Positions 6,956 to 59,487 of a stretch of 59,487 bases of DNA are shown here, piece by piece (positions within the stretch are counted from its first letter, which is position 1; every line of letters begins with the position of its first letter). A model generated the notes under the pieces. It saw only the letters and a program-made list of their open reading frames with translations, made no database searches and was not told the origin of the DNA. Position numbers and translations under genes: made by a program. The DNA lies in the IMG/VR virus record IMGVR_UViG_3300036820_000019, positions 1-59,487 of that record. One strand, given 5' to 3'. Origin of the DNA: a virus (lineage: Duplodnaviria; Caudoviricetes).

Positions 6956-7147
6956 GAGTGCGACGTGGATGAGGTCCTTCGAGGCGGCCCAGTCAATCGT
7001 GAACTCGTGGCCGCAGGGCATGACGTTGAGGGTTCGAGCCTTGACACTCGCGATCCTCAACCATTGGATCTCCGCCGCGCACGTCGGGCAGCGGTCGGAG
7101 TGCGGCAGGACACGCCAAGCCGTCATCGCTTCGTCGAGGCAAGGCAT
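6953..7147 (-). CDS. Small Zn-finger protein
   Basis: CPTC...PCGH; its TGA is the first triplet of the cassette motif. Confidence 0.6.
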   Translation of the reverse strand: MPCLDEAMTAWRVLPHSDRCPTCAAEIQWLRIASVKARTLNVMPCGHEFTIDWAASKDLIHVAL

Positions 7148-9153
7148 CGCTCGCAGGGAGTGATCTCGCCGACGGACACGTGGCGGAACCGAGCCGCCTC
7201 GGCGACCGAGACGATTCGGCCGTCCTTCGCCCCACAGATGGGGTGAGCCCAGACGTACGGCTTGCCGAGTTCTGGGTGGTCCTTCACGCCGTAGCGATTG
7301 ACGACCTCGGCCAGGTGTTCGACTTCGCCGTAGTGGCCGCGCACGTTGCCGGTGACCTGGGAGCGGTAGAACGCTCCGGAGACCCTGTCGCCAGCCTGGG
7401 CGTCCTCGACGGGGCGGGTGCCCTCGAAGGTGCCGGAGTCGCCGGTGGTCAGGATCGCGTCCTTCGCTCGGTCGTGGAGCCGCTCGAACCCGGCGGTCGG
7501 GACGTACCCAGCGGCCACGTCCGAGCCTTGCAACGCCTCGTGCAACACGGCGGCGATTCCAGCATCGCTGCGCACCACGGCGACGTCGGCGGCCGCAACC
7601 GTCGCCCCGACCAGCTCCGACGCGTCCTGCGTGACCTCAGCCACGTCTCCGACCGATTCCTCGGCACCGTCCGGGGAGCCAAGATCTAGCCCCAGCGAGT
7701 CAAGGCATACGACCCGGACGATGTCGAGAGATTGCTTCGCCCGTGTGCAGGCGACATACACGAGGCGCCAGTCGGAGGCCGTCAGCTCGCGGCCCTTGAT
7801 CTGACCGGCGGCGTTCATCCAGAGCCCGGCGGGGAAGTCGGAGAACAACTGCACCGAGTCCCACTCACGACCCTTGGCCTTGTGTGCGGTCGAGATGATG
7901 AGGTCGGCGTTCGCCTCCGATGGCATGTTGTCCATGACGAAGATGATCCGCTCGGCCCCGTACTCCTCGACAAGGTCGACGAGCATCTTGAGATCAGAAC
8001 CGTCTTCGTCCTGGTCGACGTAAGTCACGACCTCCGACCACGAACCGAAGCACGACAGTTCAGCGTGTGCGGTGAAGCCGCGGGTCTGCAATTCGATGGA
8101 TGCCTTCGCGAAGTTCGAGACCTCCGCTCCGCCGCCGACAAGGTGCGGGGACATCCCGTCGCCGAGCGCCTCGACGAACCGCTTGAACGCACCCGCATTG
8201 GTGCGGCAGAGAACCGCGTCGGGGAGTTCGACAGGACCGACGACCGACGGACCGCCGACGCCATCGAGGCGAAGCTCGGCCTCGAGTTCGGTCAGGATCT
8301 TGTTCGCGACCTCGGCGACCTCGGGCCCGAACCGGAACGACTGGGTGAGGAACGTGCGGTGCGAAGCATCGACGTTGGCGAGGGCGTTGACCGCGCCGCG
8401 CCAGTCGTAGATCTGTTGTTGCGTGTCGCCGACCCAGACAACTTGTGAGGACTGCTCGGCGACGACGGCGAGCATGACCGGCGAGGCGTCCTGAGCCTCG
8501 TCGAACAGGATGAACTCGCCAGGGATGACCGGGTGCGAGAGCTGCCACATCTTGAGGTAGCAGTCGTGCGTGAACCGGAGAGTTCCGGCCGTCTTTTGCA
8601 GGTCAGCCCAGGCTCGCACGAGTGCGGGTTCAAGGTGCGCGGCCACGAGGTTGTTGTTGTAATACGACCGCTGGTGAGTGGTCTGGTCGAGGCCGTCGAT
8701 GCCCTCGGTGTAGGGGACGTGGCGACGGGTCGGCACCGAGTCGGCCGAGTTACAGAAGTTGGCGATGGCTCGGTTGACGAGACCGGCGAGCCAGCCCGGC
8801 GCGAGACGCTTCGACTCGCCGTTGACCTCGACGACGAGAGGGTCGATGCCGAGGAACCGGGCGACGTCGGCGGACTTGACGCGAGGGCCGTTGAGGCGGC
8901 CGCGGTAATCCTTGCCGACCGCCTGGTATGCGAGGGCGTGTGCGGTCGAGCACTTGACGTTGGCGGGGAACTTGCGCTCGCCCTCGACCACGATGGCCTT
9001 GTTGAACGCGACGTACGTGCCACGACGAGAGGTCGACTTAGCGATCTCGACGAGGGTTGTCGTCTTGCCGGTACCGGCGCCCGCCTCGATGGCGATGGTC
9101 TCGCCAGTGGCGAACAACTCGACGGCCTGGTCCTGCTCGGGAGTGCGATTCAT
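7123..9153 (-). CDS. UvrD/Rep-family SF1 helicase with a C-terminal Zn-binding extension
   Basis: AGAGTGKTT, DEAQD, VGDTQQQIYDWRGA, LTQSFRFG, STAHKAKGREW, YVACTRA. Confidence 0.95.
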   Translation of the reverse strand: MNRTPEQDQAVELFATGETIAIEAGAGTGKTTTLVEIAKSTSRRGTYVAFNKAIVVEGERKFPANVKCSTAHALAYQAVGKDYRGRLNGPRVKSADVARFLGIDPLVVEVNGESKRLAPGWLAGLVNRAIANFCNSADSVPTRRHVPYTEGIDGLDQTTHQRSYYNNNLVAAHLEPALVRAWADLQKTAGTLRFTHDCYLKMWQLSHPVIPGEFILFDEAQDASPVMLAVVAEQSSQVVWVGDTQQQIYDWRGAVNALANVDASHRTFLTQSFRFGPEVAEVANKILTELEAELRLDGVGGPSVVGPVELPDAVLCRTNAGAFKRFVEALGDGMSPHLVGGGAEVSNFAKASIELQTRGFTAHAELSCFGSWSEVVTYVDQDEDGSDLKMLVDLVEEYGAERIIFVMDNMPSEANADLIISTAHKAKGREWDSVQLFSDFPAGLWMNAAGQIKGRELTASDWRLVYVACTRAKQSLDIVRVVCLDSLGLDLGSPDGAEESVGDVAEVTQDASELVGATVAAADVAVVRSDAGIAAVLHEALQGSDVAAGYVPTAGFERLHDRAKDAILTTGDSGTFEGTRPVEDAQAGDRVSGAFYRSQVTGNVRGHYGEVEHLAEVVNRYGVKDHPELGKPYVWAHPICGAKDGRIVSVAEAARFRHVSVGEITPCERCLASTKR

Positions 9154-9241
9154 GACTTCCTCCTGGGGAGAGGTTGCCGGGCTCCGTGCCCGACGAGTCA
9201 ATGGTAATGCGCACTGGTCACGTGGTCAAGACAATCTTTCA
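9154..9241 (-). promoter_or_regulatory. Promoter cassette copy 2 (helicase)
   Basis: TGAAAGATTGTC-TTGACC-N17-TACCAT, hairpin GTCGGGC-ACGGA-GCCCGGC, RBS CTCCCCAGGAGG. Confidence 0.88.
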
Positions 9242-9242
9242 G

Positions 9243-9341
9243 ACAGACGAACGGCGGGCCCTCCGCCTAGTCGCCGAAGCAACCATCAGCAGGCCCGCCG
9301 CTCAATCTCCCAGGAGGACCGGGCTAGCCCGGCCATCATTG
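9243..9341 (-). ncRNA. Candidate structured small RNA with an anti-RBS segment
   Basis: TACGAT -10-like box at 9348-9353; 5' hairpin; CCUCCUGGGAG; 13-bp stem with G-U pairs enclosing a C(UUCG)G-capped inner stem. Confidence 0.55.
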
Positions 9342-9360
9342 CTTTGCATCGTAGGTGACG

Positions 9361-9657
9361 CTACCGCGAGAGGGCGGCGGCCGTCGCTTTCAGATGGCGA
9401 ATGACGTTGAACGCGATAACGCCTCCGGCTATGACCCACGAGACCGCCGGGACGAGCGCCTGCACAATGGGCGGGATTACGAACCCAGGGTGCAAGACGA
9501 CGATGATCCCGTTCGCGACCGAGATGGCGGCGGTGAGGAACACGACGATGCTCGTCGGGTCGGTCCACGTCGGCATCGGAATCTCGACTTGCTTCTCGTT
9601 CGCCATGACCGAGCGACCGGCGTCGGTGTCCCGGACCGGGATCGTCAGCTTGCTCAC
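9361..9657 (-). CDS. Holin-like protein with two TM helices
   Basis: Two hydrophobic helices and a basic C-terminus, at the end of the lysis cluster. Confidence 0.7.
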   Translation of the reverse strand: MSKLTIPVRDTDAGRSVMANEKQVEIPMPTWTDPTSIVVFLTAAISVANGIIVVLHPGFVIPPIVQALVPAVSWVIAGGVIAFNVIRHLKATAAALSR

Positions 9658-11093
9658 GACGCGGTGTTCGGGAGCTTGAGCAGCTTCTCGATGAATGAGA
9701 TCCCGGATTCGGCGAGCGATGCGAACGGCTCGGGCAAGGTCGCGGCGAATGTCGCGATGACCACCAAAGCCTCCTCGACCTCCTGCGTGATGGGTGATGG
9801 CGAGGGCGACGGGGATGGCCCCGGCGAAGGGGAAGGGCTCGGTGCCGGGCCAGGGGTCGGATCTGGGACGGGTCCCGGAGAGGGCGGGCCCGGTGACGGT
9901 GAGGGCGCGGGCTCGGGTGCCGGTGACGGTGAGACGGGAGGGTCCACTACCGTGCCGCCCCCAGCTTTGATGGCGGCCAGGACCGCGTCGAAGTCGAGAC
10001 CCGTGTTCTCGGCGTCCTCGCGAGTGGCGATGCCCCAGGCTTCGACGACGCATGCTGTCATCCAGTCGTAGGTCATCTCCTGGAGCTTCGCCCAGGTGAC
10101 GCACGTCCCCATGCCTGGCGCGAACTTGACGAGCAAGATCCCGTGACCTTCGTCCGGGTCTGGCTTCTCTCCGTTGGCGACGGTCCACGGTGAGTTCGGA
10201 AAGAGCGTCTGCGCGTCGTCGGTGAGCTCGACGCCAAGGATGATCCCATTGAACTCGAGCGCCTCGACTCCGAGGTTCGCCGGGTCGAGGTTCGTTATCT
10301 CGACGAACCCGAACTCGTCGATGTCGTCTCCGGCCAGCTTCGCCTTTTGCGACTCGTCGAAGAGGTACTGCAACCAATCCGAGATGACCGAGCCCTCGTC
10401 GGGAGTTGGCGGCGGTTCGCCCGCCGCGATCCCGTAGCCGTAGTAGAGGCCGAGGGTTTCGTCGGTCGCCGGTGCGGAGTCGCCGGGAAAGAGTTTCTTC
10501 GACATGCGATTGTGCTCGGTGGCGGCAGGCACACAGTCCGACTCGTCGTCGTTGCCGAGCATCCCCCAGGCCGTTATGCCCTGGGTCACGTCGCCGGAGG
10601 TCGCGCCCTCGAACCGTCTCGAGCCGGTGCGGAGGAGTTCGACCGCGAGTTCTGGTCGATGCTTCGCCGGCTTGCGGCCGGTCTTGTACGGGTGCGTCTG
10701 GGCGTGGCCCGCGATCCCGGTGTCATCGTGCGTCAATGTTGCCTCCTGGGTTATCGGTCGAGGAACGCCAGTCGCCGACTCGACGTGGTCGTGCAGCGCG
10801 TCCATCCTTGCATGAAGTCCACCGATGAGGCGAGCCATTTCCTCGGCCTGTGACTTGGCGAGTTCGCGGCGGTGTGCTCGTTCCGACTCGTGGATGCGGT
10901 GCCACCATGCCTCGACCTTCGGGCGGAGCCAGGGTTCGAGGATCTTCGCCAGGACGAGACCGACGAGGATGGCGAGTAGCTGCTCCGAACCGTTCGTGAT
11001 CCAGTTGTCGGGGTTGAACGCGAACGCGGCGAAGTGGCGAAGATGCGCCCAGTCGTAGGGCACGTCGGCATGGATGAACGCGAGGAGGGTCAC
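9654..11093 (-). CDS. Papain-like cysteine peptidase (putative lysin) fused to an N-terminal TM domain; internal start at 10736
   Basis: MLGNDDESDCVPAA (Cys), GHGILLV (His), VTWA; Pro/Ser linker; CCCAGGAGG before the in-frame TTG at 10736. Confidence 0.7.
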   Translation of the reverse strand: MTLLAFIHADVPYDWAHLRHFAAFAFNPDNWITNGSEQLLAILVGLVLAKILEPWLRPKVEAWWHRIHESERAHRRELAKSQAEEMARLIGGLHARMDALHDHVESATGVPRPITQEATLTHDDTGIAGHAQTHPYKTGRKPAKHRPELAVELLRTGSRRFEGATSGDVTQGITAWGMLGNDDESDCVPAATEHNRMSKKLFPGDSAPATDETLGLYYGYGIAAGEPPPTPDEGSVISDWLQYLFDESQKAKLAGDDIDEFGFVEITNLDPANLGVEALEFNGIILGVELTDDAQTLFPNSPWTVANGEKPDPDEGHGILLVKFAPGMGTCVTWAKLQEMTYDWMTACVVEAWGIATREDAENTGLDFDAVLAAIKAGGGTVVDPPVSPSPAPEPAPSPSPGPPSPGPVPDPTPGPAPSPSPSPGPSPSPSPSPITQEVEEALVVIATFAATLPEPFASLAESGISFIEKLLKLPNTAS

Positions 11094-18785: not shown

Positions 18786-19670
18786 TCACAGCCACGCGTC
18801 GTTCCACGAGCAATACGCCTCCTGGGTGCCGGACGGCGACGCCGAGCCTAGGTGGTAGGTGATGGTCGTTCCACCGTTGGGCTTGAGTTGGAAGAACGCG
18901 ATCGCGGCGACGACGTCCCACGCCGAGTTCCCGTCTTGGTCGACGCACGTTTGGTTATACAGGTCGATCTCGATTGCGGTCGGCATGGGCGGCGCGGCAT
19001 TCGTCCCGCGGTTCGCCGACGTTATGAGGATCTGATTGCCGAGGTCGTCTTCGATGTAGTCGCCGTTGCACGGGTAGTCGAGCGTGAACACCGGCCACGC
19101 CGGGTAGTTGCCGAAGGTGTCGATGGCAACCGAGCCGTCACGGTCGAGTTCCTGCGGTGACCGACCCGACGGCGTGACTTGCTTGATCGGGAACGGGCAT
19201 ATCAGCGAGCCCTCGAATTGGAACGGCCAGGCGTCGGGAGTCTGCCCGGACGAGCCCGGCGGGACCTCTTTGTACTCCGGCTTCGATGCCAGGTAGCCAT
19301 CGAGGTACAGGTCAGTCTCGCCCTCGTGCACGACGACGTGGCAGGTCCCCTGAGCAAGCGTCGCGGCGAGGAGCATGCCCCACTGGGATTCGGCCGCCCA
19401 GCGCGCCGACTCGGAGGGAGCTATGGCGAAACCGTTGGCGAAAGTGATTAGTCGGCTTTGGAGTTCGTTCACGCCGACGATGGTCCCGTCGATGCCGTAA
19501 GGGTCGACGAGGACCTGGCGAACGTCGGGCCCGTCCCAGCCTTCGAGTTCCTCTATGGCCCAATAGACGCCGTTGCCGTCGGGGACGAGTTGCCCGGTGT
19601 CGTCGTTCGTCTCGTTGAAATTGATCGAGAGAACGCCGGTCGGGTCGGTGACGGTGTACCAGCGCGGCAC
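18786..19670 (-). CDS. Distal tail protein (Dit-like)
   Basis: Directly after the tape measure gene; ELEGWDGPDVR, CPFP, GNYPAWPVF, WNDAWL motifs. Confidence 0.8.
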   Translation of the reverse strand: MPRWYTVTDPTGVLSINFNETNDDTGQLVPDGNGVYWAIEELEGWDGPDVRQVLVDPYGIDGTIVGVNELQSRLITFANGFAIAPSESARWAAESQWGMLLAATLAQGTCHVVVHEGETDLYLDGYLASKPEYKEVPPGSSGQTPDAWPFQFEGSLICPFPIKQVTPSGRSPQELDRDGSVAIDTFGNYPAWPVFTLDYPCNGDYIEDDLGNQILITSANRGTNAAPPMPTAIEIDLYNQTCVDQDGNSAWDVVAAIAFFQLKPNGGTTITYHLGSASPSGTQEAYCSWNDAWL

Positions 19671-24460: not shown

Positions 24461-25344
24461 GAAATGACCGGCTGGTCGAAGTTGTACCACTCCTGGTAAA
24501 GCGGACTCTCCTCGGGCGCGACCGAGTCGGGAGAGATGAACGAGGCTCGACGTCGGAGGCCGAACGGATTCGAGGCGACGATGAACAGGTCGACGAGCGG
24601 CAGGCCCGTGAGCCCTTTCTCTATGAACGTCAACGGGTCGGCCGCTATGGCGGTGACGCCCTGGCGAGCGATGTTTATGACGCGCTGCGGGAGGTCCGAC
24701 TCCGAGCCCGAGAGGGCTTTGGCGATCTCGACGGCGTAGGCGAACGCGGCGATCCTGCCGTCAGCGGGCAGTCGCTTTCCCCAGGCGTAGTCGACGAACC
24801 ATCGACCATCGGAGAGCGCCGGCTGTCGGAGGTCCTGGCAACACGGCCAGACCTGCGGCGAGTTCGGTGCGGGCGGTGGCGTCGTCGACGCCATGCGGAC
24901 AAGGCGCCGCTTGTTGAGCAGCGTGTAGTCGATGCCCGGTCGGAGCAGCGTGCCGTTGACCGTGACGCCTGATATGACGACCGACGTCGGGAAGACGAAC
25001 TCGGCCGACGACGCGCAGTTACAACCGTTCCACGCGTAACCGCCCGCGCCCCATCCCTGCCAGAGCGACCACGCCGAGCCCCAGCCTCCCCACGACGCCA
25101 TCCACCACGGCGCGCACCCGCAGTCGCGGTTTATGACCGTCGGTTGTATGCGAGCGATTCCGCCCTCGGCGAACTGCCGACCGGTGAGGCGGTACAAGTT
25201 CTCCGAGGCGGCGCAACAGATCAGGCTCAGCATCTCGGGATTCGAGGCGATGTCCGGCGAGAGCCAGCCGGAGCCGCCCTGCCCGTCGGAGTTGGCGCCG
25301 GGTGCGGCGAGGATCTGGTCGGGGGTGACCCATGGGAGGAGCAT
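24457..25344 (-). CDS. Head-to-tail adaptor
   Basis: LYRLTGRQF...LPQRVINIARQGVT...TGLPLVDLFIVASNP motifs of actinophage adaptors. Confidence 0.8.
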   Translation of the reverse strand: MLLPWVTPDQILAAPGANSDGQGGSGWLSPDIASNPEMLSLICCAASENLYRLTGRQFAEGGIARIQPTVINRDCGCAPWWMASWGGWGSAWSLWQGWGAGGYAWNGCNCASSAEFVFPTSVVISGVTVNGTLLRPGIDYTLLNKRRLVRMASTTPPPAPNSPQVWPCCQDLRQPALSDGRWFVDYAWGKRLPADGRIAAFAYAVEIAKALSGSESDLPQRVINIARQGVTAIAADPLTFIEKGLTGLPLVDLFIVASNPFGLRRRASFISPDSVAPEESPLYQEWYNFDQPVIS

Positions 25345-25356
25345 GCTCGTAGATCC

Positions 25357-25674
25357 TTAGCTCGGTGGTCCTGGCGGCGCGAGCGCAGTGAACACGGCCG
25401 ACTCGGTGATGGCGCATGCTCCGGTCCCCTGCACGGTGAGCCGACCCACTCCCGCGACGGTAACCGGCAACTCGACCTGGTAGACGCCGACCTCGAGTTT
25501 GTTGATGGTTGCCGGGTAGGCGAGAGGAGTCCAAACGTCGCCCTGCAAATACTGGGCGGTGACGGTGTCGGGATCGACTGGCACCGAGGGTGCGTCGGGA
25601 TTGGCGAACGTCATGGTCGCGGTGATCGATGTATTTGTATACAACGGGTCCGGCAGGTTGAGCTGAATCGCCAC
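25357..25674 (-). CDS. Small Ig-like structural protein
   Basis: PVDPDTVT...GVYQVEL beta-sandwich pattern. Confidence 0.6.
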   Translation of the reverse strand: MAIQLNLPDPLYTNTSITATMTFANPDAPSVPVDPDTVTAQYLQGDVWTPLAYPATINKLEVGVYQVELPVTVAGVGRLTVQGTGACAITESAVFTALAPPGPPS

Positions 25675-36247: not shown

Positions 36248-36262
36248 GGCGAGCCTCCTGGG

Positions 36263-39380: not shown

Positions 39381-39742
39381 GCCACGACAGCGTAGGCGGA
39401 AACGGCGACGAGGTAGCCGTCCGGGTGCGCGTCGAGGAATCGTTCGAGGGCCTGCCGGTCGCCCGGTTTCGCCTCGGGTCGGTGCCGCCCTTGAATGGCG
39501 ATCATGTCGAGGGCCGGGCGGGCGCGTGCGGCCTCCGCGACGAAGAACTCCGGCAGGGAATCGAGGCGGTCACCGAGCGCCAGACACAGTTCGTATTCGG
39601 CCTGCGCCTGGGCGCCGGAAAGGTGCGCACGGTCGACGGCCGCGGTGTACTTCACGACCCATCGGCGATTCCGGGTGAGAGGTTCGGCCGGTCCCTGTTT
39701 CAGACCGCCCAGCGTTTGCCGGTACCGGTGGCGCGAGATCAT
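39377..39742 (-). CDS. Hypothetical protein, paralog A
   Basis: WVVKY...FLDAHPDGYLVAVSA; ATG overlaps the portal stop. Confidence 0.75.
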   Translation of the reverse strand: MISRHRYRQTLGGLKQGPAEPLTRNRRWVVKYTAAVDRAHLSGAQAQAEYELCLALGDRLDSLPEFFVAEAARARPALDMIAIQGRHRPEAKPGDRQALERFLDAHPDGYLVAVSAYAVVA

Positions 39743-41973
39743 GCGTCGACGGGCGCCGGTAGGGCGTCGTCGACGAGGGCCGAGAACGTGGCGAGGTCGA
39801 CGATGTGAGCCGAGTCGAACAGACGGGCGCGGGTGTTCGCTTCGAGGAGTGCCGTCGCTTTCTCGGCGAGGTCGCCAGGCGACTCGCAACCGTGCTCACG
39901 GGCCCATGCCGCGACCATGCGCGAGAACGCCGAGAACTCACCGGCGACGGAGAGGTCCCATTCGCCGAGGAGTGCCGCCGAGGTTGTCGGTCCCAGGGTC
40001 GCGGCGACCTCAGCATTCGAGACGCCGGAGACGAGAGCCGCGGCGGCCGGGTTCTTCGGCACGACCGTCCGCAGTTTGGCGCCGACTTTCTCGACGGCTT
40101 TCTCGACGGCGTACATGGCGGCCGAGTGCACACGGAGCGCCAAGATCCCGACGGCGACGGCGTGTCGCTCCGAGGAGGCCGCGACGGCCTTCGGTGCGGC
40201 CACAGGACCGACGGGCGGGGCGGCGGGCCCTCCGACGGTGCCAGGCGGTGCCGGTGCAGGCGGAGCAGCGGGCGGCAGAGGTAGCCCGGTTTGCGGGTCG
40301 ACCGCTGGCGGCGGTGCGCCGTTGACCGCATCACCCGAGCCCGGCGCGGGCTGGTCGTACGGGTCCGTGCCATCCGGGAACTTGTACTGGCCCTCGGTGT
40401 TGCCCGGTTGATTCTTGAGTTGCAGGAGCGCCGGGTCGACCACGACGGGCAAGTCGACGTCGGTGCCACGGACCATGACCCGGAAGTTCAACTCCTGCGC
40501 CTGGCGGATGCGGCGAGCGATCTCGTCGTCGTCCGGTGCGTCGTCCTCCGTGAAGCCGAGGGTCTGGCGGTAGGCGTGGTCGGAGATCGCGATCGCGTCG
40601 TGTGCCTTCTCGGCGGCCGCGGTGCGGTCCGGCTTCGAGATGAGATGCGAGGCGTCGTACCAAGCGAGTTGCTTCTTGATCTCCGGCGGCACGGGTGACC
40701 CAGGCTTGAGCCCGCGCCGTTGCATGAGCTTCGGCCAGAGGTAGCCGCGGGTCAGGGCCTCGCACACTTCCGAGAGACCGGGCTCGATGTAGAGGCGGAA
40801 AGCGTCCTCGGTGATTTGGAACGCGTTCGAGAACGTCGTCGAGGCGTGGCCGAAGATCCACTCCGGCGGGAGTTCGATGCCCTGGGCGAATCGCTCGAGC
40901 GCCTCGCGCCGTTTCGCCATGGCGACCGCGGCATCCGGGCGCGCGAACGACAGGTACTTGATCCCCTTGTCGATCAGCTCCGCCGGACCTCGCATGACGA
41001 TGGGTGCGACGCCGGCTGCGGTGCCCTTGTTCTCGATGGCGTTGATCATCGTCGTGATGATCTCTCGGGTGAACGGGTCGAAGTCCTCCGTGCCGGGCTG
41101 CGCGTCGTCGTCGTTCGGGAACGAGAACTCGTCGGCGATTGCCATGACACCGGCGGACGAGATGCGTGAGACCGTCTCGCCGCGGACCTCCCGAGTAAGC
41201 AAGACGATCTCATCGAGGATTTCGAGGAGGGCCCGCACCGAGGAGTCGGCGTGTCGCGAGAACCGGGGGTGCGGTCGCCAGATGCGGCAGATGAACGCGT
41301 CGTCCGGGAGCTGCCGAGGGTTGAACCCTGGGCCGTAGTACTTCATCCAGCGGACGTTCTGCGGGCGGTTCGTGGCGTTGTACGCGGCCGACGAGGAGAT
41401 CGGCCGCAGTTCGTCAGTCGACAGGACCTCCCACGTTCCGGCGTTGCCGTCGATGGCGTCGTTGAGATACAGGAAGCACTCGCCGACCATGAACGTGTTT
41501 CGACCCATGCGCTCCATGAGGTACGCCTGGGAGCCGTACGGCGATTGCAACTCCGCCAGGATCTCAGTCGCCTCGTCGGCCATCGTCTTCTCGGGCGAGT
41601 CGTCGTCGAAGGTCATCGAGACGGTGCCCTCCTCGTTGGCGACAGCACCGACGAGGTTCACCCGGCGAAAGCAGTTGCCGTAGATGCGAGCGGCGTTCGA
41701 GAGCTCACCGACGAGGTCGATGTATCCCCAGGCGTCGGTCTGCCACTGGCGAGTCGCCGACGGTGGCGGAACGGCCTCGGGATTCTCGGCGCCCTTCGTG
41801 AACACCGACGCGGCACCGGTGAGAGCTTCACGGTCGAGGACGTGCCCGGCGGCATAGGCACGCTGCGCGGCGATCTGGTGAGCGATGTCGAACCGCGGCC
41901 GCTTCGCCTCCTCGGCTCGAACGACCTCGTGACCCTCGGCCTCGATGACCGACCTACGACTCCAAGGTGCCAC
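39739..41973 (-). CDS. Portal protein
   Basis: WQTDAWGYIDLVGEL, VGECFL, RIWRPHPR...ADSSVR, ISDHAYRQTLGFTEDDAP. Confidence 0.88.
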   Translation of the reverse strand: MAPWSRRSVIEAEGHEVVRAEEAKRPRFDIAHQIAAQRAYAAGHVLDREALTGAASVFTKGAENPEAVPPPSATRQWQTDAWGYIDLVGELSNAARIYGNCFRRVNLVGAVANEEGTVSMTFDDDSPEKTMADEATEILAELQSPYGSQAYLMERMGRNTFMVGECFLYLNDAIDGNAGTWEVLSTDELRPISSSAAYNATNRPQNVRWMKYYGPGFNPRQLPDDAFICRIWRPHPRFSRHADSSVRALLEILDEIVLLTREVRGETVSRISSAGVMAIADEFSFPNDDDAQPGTEDFDPFTREIITTMINAIENKGTAAGVAPIVMRGPAELIDKGIKYLSFARPDAAVAMAKRREALERFAQGIELPPEWIFGHASTTFSNAFQITEDAFRLYIEPGLSEVCEALTRGYLWPKLMQRRGLKPGSPVPPEIKKQLAWYDASHLISKPDRTAAAEKAHDAIAISDHAYRQTLGFTEDDAPDDDEIARRIRQAQELNFRVMVRGTDVDLPVVVDPALLQLKNQPGNTEGQYKFPDGTDPYDQPAPGSGDAVNGAPPPAVDPQTGLPLPPAAPPAPAPPGTVGGPAAPPVGPVAAPKAVAASSERHAVAVGILALRVHSAAMYAVEKAVEKVGAKLRTVVPKNPAAAALVSGVSNAEVAATLGPTTSAALLGEWDLSVAGEFSAFSRMVAAWAREHGCESPGDLAEKATALLEANTRARLFDSAHIVDLATFSALVDDALPAPVDA

Positions 41974-45993: not shown

Positions 45994-46085
45994 CTGTGAA
46001 ACCTCCTGGGGGAGTGGTGCCGTTGGCGCCTTGCCAACACATTCAAGAGTACTCAGCTCGCCGGGGAAGTCAAGACAATCTTTCA
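45994..46085 (-). promoter_or_regulatory. Promoter cassette copy 5
   Basis: TGAAAGATTGTC-TTGACT-N16-TACTCT, GTTGGC-AAGGC-GCCAAC, CTCCCCCAGGAGG. Confidence 0.85.
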
Positions 46086-47576
46086 GGCGCCGAACTGAGA
46101 GATGCGCGAGGTCGACGGGATTCGGATGCCTGCGCCGCCGTTGTAGATGCGAGCGCCCTTTTGCGCCGCCTTGACCATGAGGTACCAGAACCCCCAGACC
46201 ATCGCATCGAGGCGGTTCGGTGACCAGTCCGACGGGTCGATGTCCGTCGGTGGTTTCCACGTGGTGCACTGCCCCTCGAGTAGGGCATGGGAGCCGACCC
46301 ACTTGATCCGGTCCTGCTCCTGTAGCGACACGATGGGCTCGGCACGTGCGGCCTTCCCCTGGCGAGCAGTGACGTCGATGATGCGCACGGTCTCGCCGCC
46401 GGGGATGGCGCGGATGATGCCGATGGTCTCGGCCTTCGGCGGCAGGTTCGTCTCTATGACCATGGCCTTGCACCCGAGGTCGTGGTAAGCCTCGACGGCA
46501 ACCTTGCCCCAGACCGCGCCGCGGCCGACGGTCGAATAATCGCCGAGGATGTACCCGGTCGGCTTCGGTTTCTTGTCGATCCCACAGTGCACGATGCCCG
46601 CCTCGCCACCCATGGACGGGTCGATGCCGAGGACGGTCGACCGCATGTCCGGCAGGTCGAAGACTGAGAGGCCGTCTTCGTCGAGCGACGTCTTCGTGAG
46701 CCGGTTGCGATTTATGAGGGCCGAGTTCCATAGGGCGCCCTCGACGTCGTCGAGGATCTCGGCATAGATCTCCTGGCGGCCGAGCGTGGTCCCTTCGTAC
46801 GCCGACAGGATCTCCGTGTAGAACGTCTCCGACAAGTTCATGGCGTTGCGGTGCGTCGAGAACTTCACCCACTTGCACCGAGGGTGCGCCACGAGGTCGT
46901 CGATGAGGGTGGACCGCGCGGGCGTGCCGGTGACGACCATCTGCGGGTGCTCGCCGACACGGAGCGCGAACAGGAGGTTCGCCACGGTCGAGTTGCGGTA
47001 GAGGCCGACGTGTGCGTCCGGGAACTCGGCCGGCTCGTCGACCCACGCCATGCCGAGGTTGTACCCGCGAGGTTCGTCCGGCTTCTGCGCCGAGAACCCT
47101 TTGACCTTCGCTCCGTTGGCGAGGTAGAGCTCCGACATCGAGCGCGACCACGACGTCTTGAGAGAACCCCCTCTGAGAGCTGATGGGGGTAACACCGACA
47201 ACAGGCCGGAGGGCCCTTCCATCATGAGGTCGCGGAACTTGGCGATCTTCGGCGCGGCCGCACCGACGAGCGAGTGCGGGTGCGTGCGCAGGAACTCGGC
47301 GACCTGTTCGGCGCCGGGGCGCGTCTTGCCGGAGCCTCGACCGCCGCGCATGAACCAAATCGTCCAGTCGCCCGGTGGTGGCAACTGCTCACGCCGCGGA
47401 TCGAACTTGCCTTCGAGGTTCGTCGCCGTGAGCGTCGTCATCAGCCAGCGTGCTCGCCGGAGGGCCCAGTCGTCCTTCGCCTCACGAGCCTTCGCGTACG
47501 CCAACTGCACCGCGGCTATGAGGACGTCGATCTCGTCGTCTCGAAGTGGGACCTCTAGCGGCCGGTACTCGGGCAC
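46083..47576 (-). CDS. terL: Terminase large subunit
   Basis: Walker A GGRGSGKT, Walker B WVDE, TGTP, nuclease GIDP and SPNRLDA. Confidence 0.95.
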   Translation of the reverse strand: MPEYRPLEVPLRDDEIDVLIAAVQLAYAKAREAKDDWALRRARWLMTTLTATNLEGKFDPRREQLPPPGDWTIWFMRGGRGSGKTRPGAEQVAEFLRTHPHSLVGAAAPKIAKFRDLMMEGPSGLLSVLPPSALRGGSLKTSWSRSMSELYLANGAKVKGFSAQKPDEPRGYNLGMAWVDEPAEFPDAHVGLYRNSTVANLLFALRVGEHPQMVVTGTPARSTLIDDLVAHPRCKWVKFSTHRNAMNLSETFYTEILSAYEGTTLGRQEIYAEILDDVEGALWNSALINRNRLTKTSLDEDGLSVFDLPDMRSTVLGIDPSMGGEAGIVHCGIDKKPKPTGYILGDYSTVGRGAVWGKVAVEAYHDLGCKAMVIETNLPPKAETIGIIRAIPGGETVRIIDVTARQGKAARAEPIVSLQEQDRIKWVGSHALLEGQCTTWKPPTDIDPSDWSPNRLDAMVWGFWYLMVKAAQKGARIYNGGAGIRIPSTSRISQFGA

Positions 47577-54371: not shown

Positions 54372-54376
54372 CGAGC

Positions 54377-54410
54377 GGCCCGGCCGAGACTTACACTCAC
54401 CGGCCGGGCC
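54377..54410 (-). terminator. GC hairpin directly upstream of cassette 6
   Basis: GGCCCGGCCG...CGGCCGGGCC perfect 10-bp inverted repeat. Confidence 0.55.
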
Positions 54411-54970: not shown

Positions 54971-55070
54971 GGGCTCCTCCTGGGGGAGTCGATTCGGTCG
55001 GGCGCCTTGCCCGGCTCGTTGCATCGGTGACTGTAATGGAGCACCGCGGAAAGGTCAAGACAATCTTTCA
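54971..55070 (-). promoter_or_regulatory. Promoter cassette copy 7
   Basis: TGAAAGATTGTC-TTGACC-N17-TACAGT, CGGGC-AAGGC-GCCCG, CTCCCCCAGGAGG. Confidence 0.88.
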
Positions 55071-55080
55071 AGATGCGACA

Positions 55081-55108
55081 GGCGGGCCCCGCTCGCCCAG
55101 GGCCCGCC
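55081..55108 (-). terminator. GC hairpin after the cupin gene
   Basis: GGCGGGCCC...GGGCCCGCC inverted repeat. Confidence 0.5.
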
Positions 55109-55115
55109 CGGCGCT

Positions 55116-55667
55116 CTAGTGCAAGGGCGGAGCGTGAGGGCAGCCCTGCGCGATCAGTTCATCCCGCGTCCCGACCTTCGCGCAGAGGAGACATTCGAGA
55201 ACGCCGGGGAGGTCCGAGGCGACCGACGTGTACTCGACCGGTGTCATCCGGTCCTCGGAGTCGACGGGCATGTGCGGCGCACCGACAGCGAGGATGACGT
55301 GCTCGCTGATGGCGCCGACGGCGTGCGGTTCCATGCCGGGCACGAGGTAGATATCCCCGGCCTCGGTCGGGTGGATCTTGCCGCCTATGGTGACCGTCCC
55401 GTTGCCCGCCATGATGACGAGCAAGTGGTCGCCTGGGTGCGTGTGAGGAGTGAATCCGTCGCCCGCCTCGAGTCGGATGAGGTCGGCACCGAGGGCACCG
55501 TTCGAGACGAGCCCTCGGCCGTGCGCGTTCGAGTGCGCCATCTCCGCCGGGTAGTCGCCTATGAACCGTGAGACGTCGGCCGAGACGGTGAACAGCTTGC
55601 CTCGGTCGTAGCCGAGGATGCCCTGGCCCCACTTGACGATCTGTAGTTCGCTCACTTCGGTTTCCAT
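55116..55667 (-). CDS. Cupin-domain protein with a C-terminal Cys/His motif
   Basis: PHTHPGDHLLVI...GDIYLVPGMEPH; CLLC...CPH. Confidence 0.85.
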   Translation of the reverse strand: METEVSELQIVKWGQGILGYDRGKLFTVSADVSRFIGDYPAEMAHSNAHGRGLVSNGALGADLIRLEAGDGFTPHTHPGDHLLVIMAGNGTVTIGGKIHPTEAGDIYLVPGMEPHAVGAISEHVILAVGAPHMPVDSEDRMTPVEYTSVASDLPGVLECLLCAKVGTRDELIAQGCPHAPPLH

Positions 55668-56230
55668 GCCTTCCCGAACTCGGCGGTTCCGCCGCGCTTA
55701 GTCATCGAGCCTCGGTCGAGGAGGCGAGTCACTTCCTCCGGTTCCATCTGTAGTCGAGCCGCGATCTCCTCGGGTGCCACGTCGAGGTCGACGAGCTCCG
55801 CCACGAGCTCGGCCATCGACACAACGTAGTGAGTGCCGCGTGCTCGGTTGTGCCGGATGGTCGCCATGCGCTCCTGCGCCGGGTCGGAGTCGGAAAGAAA
55901 GACGACCGGAACTTTCCCGTTCGTCGCCGCGGCGACCGGGCCCCAGCCGGCAACGGTCCACCGGTGGAAGCCGTCGATGATCGTGCCGTCCTGCCGCGCG
56001 ACTATGGGTTGCGTCCAGCCGTCCTCGAGTATCGAGATCGCGAGCAGGATCATCTCGGGCCTGGCCGTCTTGTTCGGGTTCCAATGGTTCGCAGTCAGGG
56101 AGTCGCGGTCGACCCACTTCACGGCGGAGACGGGTTGCGCCTTTTGCCCCTGCCGTTTTGCCCGCGGTAGACCGCGGGGAGCCTCCGTCGGTGCGAACTC
56201 TTTCTCGCGTGCTCCGGTCTCAGCCCTCAA
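55652..56230 (-). CDS. ParB/Srx-like protein (IbrB-like)
   Basis: WNPN...SILEDGWTQPIV...IIDGFHRW...ATIRHNRARG. Confidence 0.88.
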   Translation of the reverse strand: MRAETGAREKEFAPTEAPRGLPRAKRQGQKAQPVSAVKWVDRDSLTANHWNPNKTARPEMILLAISILEDGWTQPIVARQDGTIIDGFHRWTVAGWGPVAAATNGKVPVVFLSDSDPAQERMATIRHNRARGTHYVVSMAELVAELVDLDVAPEEIAARLQMEPEEVTRLLDRGSMTKRGGTAEFGKAWKPK

Positions 56231-57422
56231 GAGTGATCCCCAGTTCCGCCTTGACCGCCGCCAGGTACGCAGTACGTAGCTTGTCGAACTCCTCCGGCTT
56301 CGGGAGCGGTCGCCATTCCCGGTTCTTGAGGTCGCCTCGGTCGGCGAGCATGTAGAGCCACTCCCACGAGAGCCCGGTCGTCGGGTGCATGGCCGAGACG
56401 AGAGGTTCGCTCGTGAGCTTGTAGTGCTGCCGGATGAAACCTTGGATGCGCCGACCGGTGTAGGTGCGGACCGACATGTCATCGACGGCCAGAAGCCGCT
56501 GTCGGATGAGTTCCTGCCAGGTGTAGCCCTCGGGCAGTTCCATCGACTCGCCGAACGAGTAGATCTCCGTGCGCGCATAGCGAGCAGCGGCGGCCGCGCC
56601 AGGCACGCGGTCGACCATCTTCGTCCAGAGGTCCGGGCAGCACGTCTTGAACACCCACAGATCCTTCATCGGTTGCTCGCCGTAGGGCGGAGCGCAGCGT
56701 TGCGACCCGTGAGGAATCCCGACCATTTCGAGGAGGTCGTAGTACTCGTTGTAGTCCCAGCCGAACGACGCGGCCGCGTGCCAGACGTCGTTCGTGTTCA
56801 TGTCGTACACCGGGTAGACCTTGGCGACGTTGGGCCCGAGGTCGTGAGCGTGGATGATCCAGTTCTCTTTGCGCCGGTTGCCGACCGCGCGGCGCCGGGT
56901 CATCGACTCAGCGGCCCGTATCCCCATCAGCACGCCGACCGAGCCCAACTCCGCCGGACACAGGAGTCCGGTCGTCTCCGGGATCGTGGGTCGTCGCTCC
57001 GGCGGTTCTACGGGGAAGCCTGGCAAGTCAGTGATGGCTTCGGGCGGTAGAGGGCGGCACCAGAGATCGCGTGCCTCCGGCGCCCACGGCCACCAGTGCG
57101 GCGACTCTCGTGAGCACCCGTTCCGGTGTTGCACCGGCAGGCACAACCATTCGAGTTCGATGCGAGGGTCCTGGGCTATGCGCCGGACGTAGTCCTCGGT
57201 CTCGAACGGTATCGCCTCCTCGTCGAAGAACACGACCCGGAGCGGCAGTTTGCCGAGGCGCTCGGCGACGGTGAGGGCGACGTTGAGGACGACCGTCGAA
57301 TCCTTGCCGCCCGAGAACGAGACCCAGACGTTGTCGAATTGCGCGTACGCCTGCGCCGTGCGGTCGAGTGCCTCGTCCCAGACGTTCCGCTCGAGTTCGT
57401 CTTTCTGCCAGGCAATGCTCAC
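56220..57422 (-). CDS. PAPS-reductase-family (PP-loop) protein, IbrA/DUF3440-like
   Basis: VSFSGGKDS, FFDEE, GIRAAESMTR, YPVYD, QRCAPPYG. Confidence 0.88.
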   Translation of the reverse strand: MSIAWQKDELERNVWDEALDRTAQAYAQFDNVWVSFSGGKDSTVVLNVALTVAERLGKLPLRVVFFDEEAIPFETEDYVRRIAQDPRIELEWLCLPVQHRNGCSRESPHWWPWAPEARDLWCRPLPPEAITDLPGFPVEPPERRPTIPETTGLLCPAELGSVGVLMGIRAAESMTRRRAVGNRRKENWIIHAHDLGPNVAKVYPVYDMNTNDVWHAAASFGWDYNEYYDLLEMVGIPHGSQRCAPPYGEQPMKDLWVFKTCCPDLWTKMVDRVPGAAAAARYARTEIYSFGESMELPEGYTWQELIRQRLLAVDDMSVRTYTGRRIQGFIRQHYKLTSEPLVSAMHPTTGLSWEWLYMLADRGDLKNREWRPLPKPEEFDKLRTAYLAAVKAELGITLEG

Positions 57423-58111
57423 TTGGCGCGGCGTTCGAGGTCGGCGAGGGCGAACATGGCTTCGCCGATTGTGTCGACCTCGAATTGCTTCGCCTGGGCC
57501 CGTAAGTACTTCACGACGACGTCGCGCTCCTCGGTCGAATTGAACACGAGAGTGACCGACACCGCGTCGGTCTCGTTGACGCCGCCCTCCGAGCCCATGG
57601 CGTGACCACGAGACTCGCCGAGGATGTCATCGAGGAATCCACCATCACCCGCCGCGGCCAGTCCACTACTCGCCATGAGGTCCCGCATCGTCTGGTCGTT
57701 GTACCCAGTGCCGAGGAGACCTTCGGGCGTTGCTTTGAGATCCTGTAGGACCTGGGCCAGAGCCAGCGGGTCGTTGCCGCCCGCCTCGGTGAGCCGGTTG
57801 AGCGCCAGGACCATGCGCGTCGCGTGGCGGTCGTTCTTCGACCTCACGCCAGTCTGCACCGGGACGAGCCATTCGTCGCCGTCGGCGTCGACGTTCTTCG
57901 GCGGAGAGTCCCCGGCGTCACGGAGGATGACAAGTTCGTCGAGGCGGCCGTGACCACCGAGGAGTCGACCCGTGCGGTCGTCGAGGACCAGCGACTCGAT
58001 GAACCCGTGCTGCTCGAACGACTCACGAATGAGGTCGAGGTCGTGCAACTTCGGGTTGACCTTCGCGGGCGCGACGTCTGAGAGTTTCATGTACCGGATA
58101 GCGAGCGGCAT
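57419..58111 (-). CDS. ParB-like N-terminal domain protein
   Basis: NPKLHD...SFEQHGF...TGRLLGGHGR...LALNRLTE.G. Confidence 0.8.
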   Translation of the reverse strand: MPLAIRYMKLSDVAPAKVNPKLHDLDLIRESFEQHGFIESLVLDDRTGRLLGGHGRLDELVILRDAGDSPPKNVDADGDEWLVPVQTGVRSKNDRHATRMVLALNRLTEAGGNDPLALAQVLQDLKATPEGLLGTGYNDQTMRDLMASSGLAAAGDGGFLDDILGESRGHAMGSEGGVNETDAVSVTLVFNSTEERDVVVKYLRAQAKQFEVDTIGEAMFALADLERRAK

Positions 58112-58125
58112 CGCCCGGAGTCTAG

Positions 58126-58287
58126 TTACGCCCAGTTGTCGTAGGTGCCGACCGGTTCGGGCACGACGAGGATCACCGTGCCACCGGCGAACTCGATAGC
58201 GATGCACGCCCCGTCGCCGTCAAGGTCGATGATGTCCCGCGGGTCGACCTTTGCCAGCTCCGCCATCAGCTCGCCGACGGTGATCAT
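58126..58287 (-). CDS. 53-aa hypothetical protein (not in ORF track)
   Basis: MITVGELMAELAKVDPRD... Confidence 0.6.
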   Translation of the reverse strand: MITVGELMAELAKVDPRDIIDLDGDGACIAIEFAGGTVILVVPEPVGTYDNWA

Positions 58288-59112: not shown

Positions 59113-59487
59113 TCAGTCCTTCGGGTAGGCGGCCAGAGCGCCGCGGGCCCGTGCTTCGTCAGGGTCGAATGATGGGTGGTCGGCGAGGACCATCGGCCTC
59201 TCGCCGTTCGCAAAGATAGGCGCGTGGTCGTACAGGTCGTCATCTTCGGCGCCTTCGCCCTCGTCGCCGTCGGTGCGCGACACGTCGCGCAAGGGTGCGT
59301 CGGGTGCGTGGCCGCCGCCGTTGTTCTCGCGGGCGTCACCGGCCGCCAGTTCCCGGCGCCAACGAGTGATGGTCTCGGCGTGGAACCCGAACATCTCGCC
59401 CGCCGCCTTGACGCCGATCCGGTTCGACTCGGCGACGACCTCCATTTTCGTGTCGAGCGAAGGGTCCTCCCTGCGCGACTTGTCGCG
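59113..59487 (-). CDS. HTH DNA-binding protein, 3' part (starts at 331)
   Basis: Frame is continuous across the circular junction. Confidence 0.75.
   Translation of the reverse strand, partial: RDKSRREDPSLDTKMEVVAESNRIGVKAAGEMFGFHAETITRWRRELAAGDARENNGGGHAPDAPLRDVSRTDGDEGEGAEDDDLYDHAPIFANGERPMVLADHPSFDPDEARARGALAAYPKD
59361..59487. repeat. Terminal direct repeat (copy 2)
   Basis: Identical to 1-127. Confidence 0.95.

Follow-up and report, generated by a model that had tools for sequence, protein, structure and literature searches.

A candidate terminator-promoter junction holds the only inverted copy of a ribosome-binding-site tag in a soil actinobacteriophage genome

In Cluster K mycobacteriophages, a 13-bp start-associated sequence (SAS) is found 3-7 bp before 13-19 start codons, and about half of the copies have an upstream extension (PMC3203893). 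In phage Adephagia, the ESAS is present in seven copies and has been described as a 46-47-bp element that includes a SigA-like promoter and an inverted repeat (PMC11373665). An analogous motif is reported for Cluster EF Microbacterium phages (PMC7302621). The authors of the Cluster K studies leave the function of the SAS open and regard an RNA or a protein partner as possible (PMC3203893, PMC11373665). A lone inverted SAS has also been published for subcluster K1. Our literature search found no paper that linked the mycobacteriophage SAS with a small RNA. Cluster A phages are reported to have abundant noncoding RNAs of unknown function (PMC5712189), and the mycobacterial small RNA 6C/B11 is described as blocking ribosome-binding sites (RBSs) with its C-rich loops (PMC10470900).

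Here we analyse a phage genome whose RBSs carry a repeated tag with a single inverted copy. The window, that is, the whole stretch of DNA that was analysed, is IMG/VR record IMGVR_UViG_3300036820_000019 (59,487 bp, 65% GC), and all of its long ORFs lie on the minus strand. Its ends form an exact 127-bp direct terminal repeat (1-127 = 59361-59487); an overlap of this length may also arise from the assembly of a circular or permuted genome. According to matches with PHROG families, the genes on the minus strand follow the order ParB-like and PAPS-reductase-like, terminase, portal, major head protein and tape measure, then the genes just upstream of the element described here, and finally a UvrD-like helicase, Gam-like, Erf-like and SSB. 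At 55652-58207 (minus strand), the PAPS-reductase-like protein is encoded between two ParB-like proteins; this group may be a DNA-modification or partition-like module. The capsid protein matched 836 GenBank phage records, and the hosts in the names of these phages are almost all actinobacteria (Mycobacterium 485, Gordonia 179, Microbacterium 123). Every one of these matches is below 60% identity. Sequence comparison thus indicates that this soil phage is an actinobacteriophage without close cultured relatives.

The tag, CCCAGGAGG, occurs 14 times in the window compared to 0.68 times in total in shuffled sequences, with 13 copies on the minus strand (direct) and one on the plus strand (9309-9317). 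For 12 of the 13 direct copies, a start codon is found 4-14 nt downstream, whereas the copy at 18826-18818 has no usable start codon after it. The original prediction had listed 12 direct copies, in seven promoter cassettes and at genes 1069, 2476, 6161, 10742 and 36254; all of these are present, and the list had missed the copy at 18826-18818. It had also been noted that CCUCCUGGG is the exact complement of the tag and its sole inverted copy, and this is what we found (one inverted compared to 13 direct copies). On the plus strand, no ATG, GTG or TTG follows 4-13 nt past the AGGAGG of the inverted copy, as had been noted from the sequence, and a plus-strand gene behind the inverted tag was thus rejected. 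Three other CCUCCUGG 8-mers are located on the mRNA strand (50350, 21575 and 13843).

The tagged sites 36254 and 10742 and the tag at 18818 are located inside the structural (portal-to-lysis) block. Thus, the tags are not marks of early genes only, and since those in the structural block would be carried by the same transcript as the inverted copy, the proposed logic of an early-gene shut-off fails.

Seven of the tags are part of promoter-leader cassettes on the minus strand (first base of AAGATT at 55067, 54368, 46082, 45544, 43978, 9238 and 6952). The cassettes read, in this order, TGAAAGATTGTC (TGAAAGATTCTC in the 6952 copy), TTGAC, a 17-nt spacer, a TAC..T-type -10 hexamer (replaced by GATCAT in one copy), a leader hairpin, an RBS mini-hairpin and the tag. 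The leader hairpin is situated at the predicted 5' end in all seven copies; its stem varies among them, and its loop reads AAGGC in five copies and AGGGC and ACGGA in one copy each. In all seven leaders, the RBS is predicted to fold into a CUCC....GGAG mini-hairpin. Four cassettes abut the upstream ORF, which uses the TGA of TGAAAG as its stop codon. Furthermore, a very stable GC-rich hairpin is found 5-10 nt upstream of the cassettes at 55067, 54368 and 9238 (-38.8, -33.6 and -37.3 kcal/mol; z -3.5 to -4.3). These three hairpins split the genome into three putative transcription units, one of which is a single 181-aa gene (54970-54425). On the minus strand, approximately 4.5 kb lie between the terminase and portal genes (46083-47441 to 39739-41616), and three of the seven cassettes are found there together with several small ORFs. 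Cluster EF phages have also been reported to carry additional genes at this place (PMC7302621).

When comparing the tags to the published systems, we find a motif that, like the SAS, is conserved beyond an ordinary RBS, lies few bases before many starts and has almost always one orientation. Like in the ESAS, some copies are joined to an upstream promoter element and an inverted repeat, and there are seven such copies in both Adephagia and the window. The motif itself is unrelated (CCCAGGAGG here compared to GGGATAGGAGCCC and GGGAAAGGACCCC). Because it differs from both published consensus sequences, the likeness to the SAS and ESAS is one of architecture and not of descent. There is also no detectable kinship between this phage and Cluster K, in line with the low capsid identity to any GenBank phage. 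Two further differences concern the placement of the copies. First, three tags lie in the structural block here, whereas the SAS of Cluster K is confined to non-structural genes. Second, the inverted copy is a linker between two hairpins at a putative terminator here, whereas K1 phages have it as the loop of a hairpin within 385 nt of noncoding sequence. The combination of an RBS barcode with an antisense RNA had originally been proposed as an undescribed type of system. This does not hold, since start-associated sequences with promoter-bearing extensions have been published for Cluster K and Cluster EF, including the lone inverted copy of K1. By analogy, the architecture found here is thus a variant of the SAS/ESAS kind rather than an undescribed one.

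The inverted copy is part of an element located after the final gene of the structural block and before the helicase gene. The features of this region, and the two other hairpins that precede a cassette, are as follows.

7123..9153, minus strand: UvrD-like helicase gene, whose RBS is the predicted cis partner of the inverted tag
9159..9242, minus strand: promoter-leader cassette of the helicase, with TGAAAGATTGTC, TTGACC (9229-9224), a 17-nt spacer, TACCAT ending at 9201, the leader hairpin and the tag (9167-9159)
9241..9250, minus strand: interrupted U-rich tail UCGUCUGUCU, which runs into the A/U-rich start of the cassette
9249..9303, minus strand: large branched GC-rich hairpin with a 13-bp outer stem (9303-9291 with 9261-9249) that includes two G-U pairs
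9268-9285, minus strand: inner hairpin UGGUUGC-UUCG-GCGACUA, enclosed by the 13-bp stem
9309..9317, minus strand: linker CCUCCUGGG, followed by AGA; only inverted copy of the tag, joining the two hairpins
9317..9334, minus strand: small 7-bp hairpin GGCCGGG-CUAG-CCCGGUC (-12.6 kcal/mol)
9348..9353, minus strand: TACGAT, a hexamer resembling a -10 element by its sequence
9363-9361, minus strand: TAG stop codon, end of the last gene before the element
9361..9606, minus strand: 81-aa ORF, last gene before the element, holin-like by its features only
54372-54410, minus strand: hairpin upstream of a cassette (-33.6 kcal/mol)
55075-55115, minus strand: hairpin upstream of a cassette (-38.8 kcal/mol)

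All the parts that had been described from the sequence, namely the TACGAT box, the 7-bp hairpin, the CCUCCUGGG linker and the 13-bp stem around the UUCG hairpin, are present on the minus strand at their places. The TACGAT hexamer has no -35 partner, as a sigma-70 scan of 8500-10500 found no two-hexamer promoter before the element. The only sigma-70-type promoter in the scanned range is that of the helicase cassette (9229-9201).

We observed a strong fold for the element as a whole. The predicted free energy of the 136-nt RNA is -68.5 kcal/mol (z -4.06), and none of 200 shuffles folded as well. The small hairpin and the linker by themselves are not more stable than shuffled sequences (z +0.77; 158 of 200 shuffles are as stable or more so). 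When comparing the two strands, the minus-strand RNA reaches -60.4 kcal/mol compared to -40.4 kcal/mol for the plus-strand RNA, and the large hairpin alone -42.2 compared to -24.3 kcal/mol. Since the plus-strand RNA is weaker by 20 kcal/mol, the suggestion that the structure belongs to the RNA level and to the transcribed strand is borne out. No Rfam family reaches its gathering threshold in the window. Two minus-strand ORFs of about 15 codons inside the element were rejected on inspection, as they have no Shine-Dalgarno (SD) sequence.

The genes upstream of the element had been called lysis genes, which we could not confirm. The translated 81-aa ORF has, on inspection, two hydrophobic segments and matched no Pfam or PHROG family, and the sole match of the neighbouring 360-aa protein (9654-10736) is a PHROG of unknown function. 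Five homologues of the 360-aa protein with 54-66% identity are found in public assemblies, on contigs of 2.8, 16.4, 63.3, 64.7 and 5.3 kb.

We searched GenBank phages, IMG/VR, JGI metagenomes and GTDB genomes and found no relative that bears the junction. A megablast search with 8000-11000 yielded no match among GenBank phages. Protein searches in IMG/VR with the helicase, the capsid, the portal, the 888-aa tail protein and the 360-aa protein returned relatives of 30-40% identity or none, with the exception of a 60% capsid match on an 8.4-kb fragment that does not include the junction. For the helicase, two loci were detected in JGI metagenomes (40% and 33% identity), both without tags or cassettes. 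The 17-mer of the cassette was found on five contigs in IMG/VR, all with 36-42% GC and without tags, and on 62 contigs in GTDB genomes, where no actinobacterium was recognized by title alone. The search with the leader pattern gave zero matches, and a profile search based on eight homologues of the 360-aa protein gave nine loci with 30-38% identity and zero or one tag each. Among sequencing runs, the stretch was detected in one DNA run, which is probably its source, and in no RNA run. In that DNA run, the source contig alone spans the element, and no variants were seen.

Our preferred reading, to which we give an even chance, is that the locus is a terminator-promoter junction, in which the inverted RBS tag is real but may have no role of its own. 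The element would then be the 3'-end module of a long transcription unit that comprises the structural genes together with those that directly precede the element. The branched hairpin (9303-9249) with its interrupted U-rich tail may stop the RNA polymerase, protect the 3' end of the transcript, or both, and the junction would insulate two gene blocks from each other. The small hairpin and the CCUCCUGGG linker would be part of the same 3' untranslated region, and the complementarity of the linker to the tag may be an incidental or auxiliary feature. The sequence, the strand-specific fold, the position and the parallels within the genome are observed, and from these we infer termination. With respect to position, the stem starts 57 nt past the stop codon at 9363-9361, and 6 nt separate its end from the promoter cassette.

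We read the large hairpin as a terminator or 3' end because it is one of three hairpin-then-promoter junctions in the genome and because a similar layout exists in the Microbacterium phage AnnaSerena (MH271292). There, 25232-25359 lies in a region where holin, GC-rich hairpin, promoter-type repeat, small gene and helicase follow each other in the same order as in the window. The AnnaSerena junction has a SAS-like RBS without the full motif, and the genome contains ten direct tags and none that is inverted. Unlike the element here, its junction thus has one simple hairpin and no inverted tag. The dominant hairpin had been interpreted as part of a small RNA; with equivalents before two other cassettes and the parallel in AnnaSerena, this is weakened, and the hairpin is explained more simply as a terminator.

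Several observations do not fit well with a mere terminator. An uninterrupted U-tract after the stem is absent, as the tail GUCUGUCU has at most 4 U in any 8-nt window, and the site is missed by our terminator scan, whose rule asks for at least 5 T in 8 together with a loop of 3-8; the tolerance of the host polymerase may differ from this rule. Furthermore, TACGAT, the small hairpin and the linker (about 60 nt) are missing from the other two hairpin-cassette junctions and are thus dispensable for termination. That these extra 60 nt are not required to terminate argues against a pure terminator, as do a lone inverted tag in a conserved hairpin loop in seven of 17 sampled Cluster K phages and the length of the complement to the helicase start, which we consider in the following.

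To estimate whether the inverted tag exceeds chance, we compared it to dinucleotide shuffles of the 118-nt untranslated region. A contiguous 10-nt complement (UCCUCCUGGG) to the helicase start region was found in 0.36% of 20,000 shuffles (P = 0.0036, before multiple testing), and the best duplex energy of -27.0 kcal/mol was reached by 2.5% of 5,000 shuffles (P = 0.025). Allowing for 7-10 comparable junctions, the corrected P is about 0.03. Among 99 SD-start combinations in the genome, the 10-nt complement is the longest, by a small margin (next 9, 9 and 8 nt). When the 61 starts are ordered by the energy of the duplex with their upstream 260 nt, that of the helicase comes only 15th and was thus rejected as an outlier; duplexes of -23 +/- 4.5 kcal/mol between upstream and start regions are common in this 65% GC genome. 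We conclude that the evidence for an inverted tag beyond chance is suggestive but not compelling.

A complement of this kind could act in cis. In read-through RNA, the linker would pair with the helicase RBS 150 nt downstream and block its translation, whereas transcripts from the cassette promoter would escape. We consider this unlikely, although the pairing is reproduced. The original prediction of about 13 bp with one bulge between the linker and the adjacent helicase RBS is recovered as the minimum free energy fold of the 231-nt read-through RNA (-101.8 kcal/mol), in which UCCUCCUGGG-AGA pairs with UCU-C-CCCAGGAGGA and the unpaired probability of the seed drops to 0.01-0.20. The predicted duplex (-22.3 kcal/mol) is stronger than that of the same RBS with a generic anti-SD tail, which may differ from that of the host (approximately -10 kcal/mol). 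Moreover, the promoter (9229-9201) is situated between the two arms, such that its transcripts would lack the anti-RBS, and the two shuffle tests, before correction, also speak for such a pairing. The corrected P and the commonness of similarly stable duplexes at starts speak against it. In addition, the anti-RBS is present at only one of the three hairpin-cassette junctions, the block would silence only the first downstream gene, and the helicase does not fit the seed region specially well, since its pairing energy is only the sixth best among the 13 tagged sites. Because of this rank and because the complement is found at one of three hairpin-cassette junctions, the pairing itself favours neither an action in cis nor one in trans.

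An occlusion of the RBS that depends on the transcript is known from phage T4, where it affects the lysozyme gene e, soc, gene 49 and I-TevI. Similar to T4, an upstream segment here is predicted in silico to pair with a start region in a long read-through RNA, and the promoter of the gene itself is situated inside the paired structure, such that only RNAs from this promoter would be translated. In T4, local hairpins silence early read-through RNA, whereas the modelled arms here are 150 nt apart and separated by the putative terminator and the promoter. The long RNA would also be a transcript of the structural block, unlike the early read-through RNA of T4.

Alternatively, CCUCCUGGG could act in trans, as the seed through which a stable RNA of some 100 nt would bind CCCAGGAGG at tagged starts, in competition with ribosomes. 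This RNA would be the 3' end (3' UTR) of the long transcript or start from TACGAT, and its C-rich seed of 8-9 nt would be placed between a 5' hairpin and a terminator hairpin. We find this doubtful as well. Its layout of hairpin, linker and terminator resembles that of a small RNA, and the single inverted copy contrasts with the 13 direct copies, 12 of which are at start sites. Comparing the duplex energy to the opening costs, pairing in trans is predicted to be feasible: the 9-bp duplex yields -17.8 kcal/mol, and opening costs are +3.55 kcal/mol for the seed and +4.7 to +8.3 kcal/mol for the targets in the seven leaders, such that the rough net energy is favourable. The seed is accessible in part. 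In the terminated RNA, its per-base unpaired probability ranges from 0.02 to 0.89, with 0.2-0.9 for the middle bases, and the 3.55 kcal/mol are needed to open all nine bases. In the predicted fold, both ends of this 9-nt exact complement to 13 sites are partly paired: its first C is the closing base of the small hairpin, and the large stem is lengthened by the AGA. These flanks have an unpaired probability of at most 0.14, which speaks against a seed. A -35 element before the candidate RNA is missing, too, and the tags at 36254, 18818 and 10742 would sit on the same transcript as the seed.

A precedent for targeting RBSs with C-rich loops, and without a chaperone, is documented in mycobacteria (PMC10470900). 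Like 6C/B11 as described there, the element has a C-rich unpaired stretch that is flanked by helices and complementary to the G-rich RBSs of many mRNAs, in an actinobacterial setting without Hfq. Unlike 6C/B11, the candidate RNA would be encoded by a phage, its seed would be a linker and not a loop, and it has no Rfam match.

The inverted SAS of Cluster K is the closest analogue, and it bears on an action in trans in both directions. In phage Anaya, there are 16 direct and one inverted SAS, with the latter located between gp96 and gp97, which are separated by 385 nt of noncoding sequence. When positions 59779-59979 of the Anaya record are folded as RNA (201 nt, z -4.69), the complement of the SAS comes to lie in the loop of a hairpin. 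This noncoding region, which Cluster K phages carry close to their right end, is conserved across 182 phage records, and no Rfam family matches it at the gathering score. The anti-SAS is kept in seven of 17 sampled Cluster K phages. An alignment of six of the phages that have it shows an invariant 11-nt loop on a 17-pair stem, in which two compensatory double changes are found and seven pairs are kept despite a one-sided change. This invariant loop counts in favour of an action in trans. Among the remaining ten, five phages have another pyrimidine-rich sequence as the loop, Marshawn has an A-rich one and Keshu a long insert, and the loop is absent from Yuna, KiSi and SirPhilip. Whole-genome counts in ten Cluster K genomes gave 13-17 direct SAS in all ten and an inverted copy in one. 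The nine genomes that have tags but no inverted copy, with a homologous loop that is diverged or deleted, count against a partner in trans, as does AnnaSerena with its ten direct tags. These sequence comparisons show that a lineage can conserve a lone inverted tag as part of a structured noncoding RNA, and that such an inverted copy is not an obligatory partner of the tag.

Lastly, it is very improbable that the element is a functionless, inverted partial duplication of a cassette leader: the plus strand does read hairpin, spacer and CUCCCAGGAGG like the leaders, and its local alignment to the seven leaders scores 26 compared to 18.6 +/- 2.6 for shuffled sequences (P = 0.017), with matches that extend over 35 columns in leader 6952 and over 58 columns in leader 55067, but no start codon follows on this strand, the opposite orientation scores 17, and the similarity beyond the tag was rejected as insignificant once the tag was removed (20 compared to 16.5 +/- 2.4, P = 0.11).

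If the inverted tag has no function, the locus would be an ordinary terminator-promoter junction, and the window would still represent a third, unrelated lineage with a SAS/ESAS-like architecture. If it is functional, the phage would encode an RNA that recognizes a private extension of the Shine-Dalgarno sequence. RBS tags of the SAS type would then have a dedicated, phage-encoded antisense partner, which would provide a mechanism for the SAS and ESAS, and the invariant anti-SAS loop of the K1 type would be an independent second example. The anti-SAS hairpin of K1 offers a cultivable system for testing the idea of an anti-tag. With a functional anti-tag, the function of the SAS, which has been open since 2011, would become directly testable in phages of Mycobacterium smegmatis.
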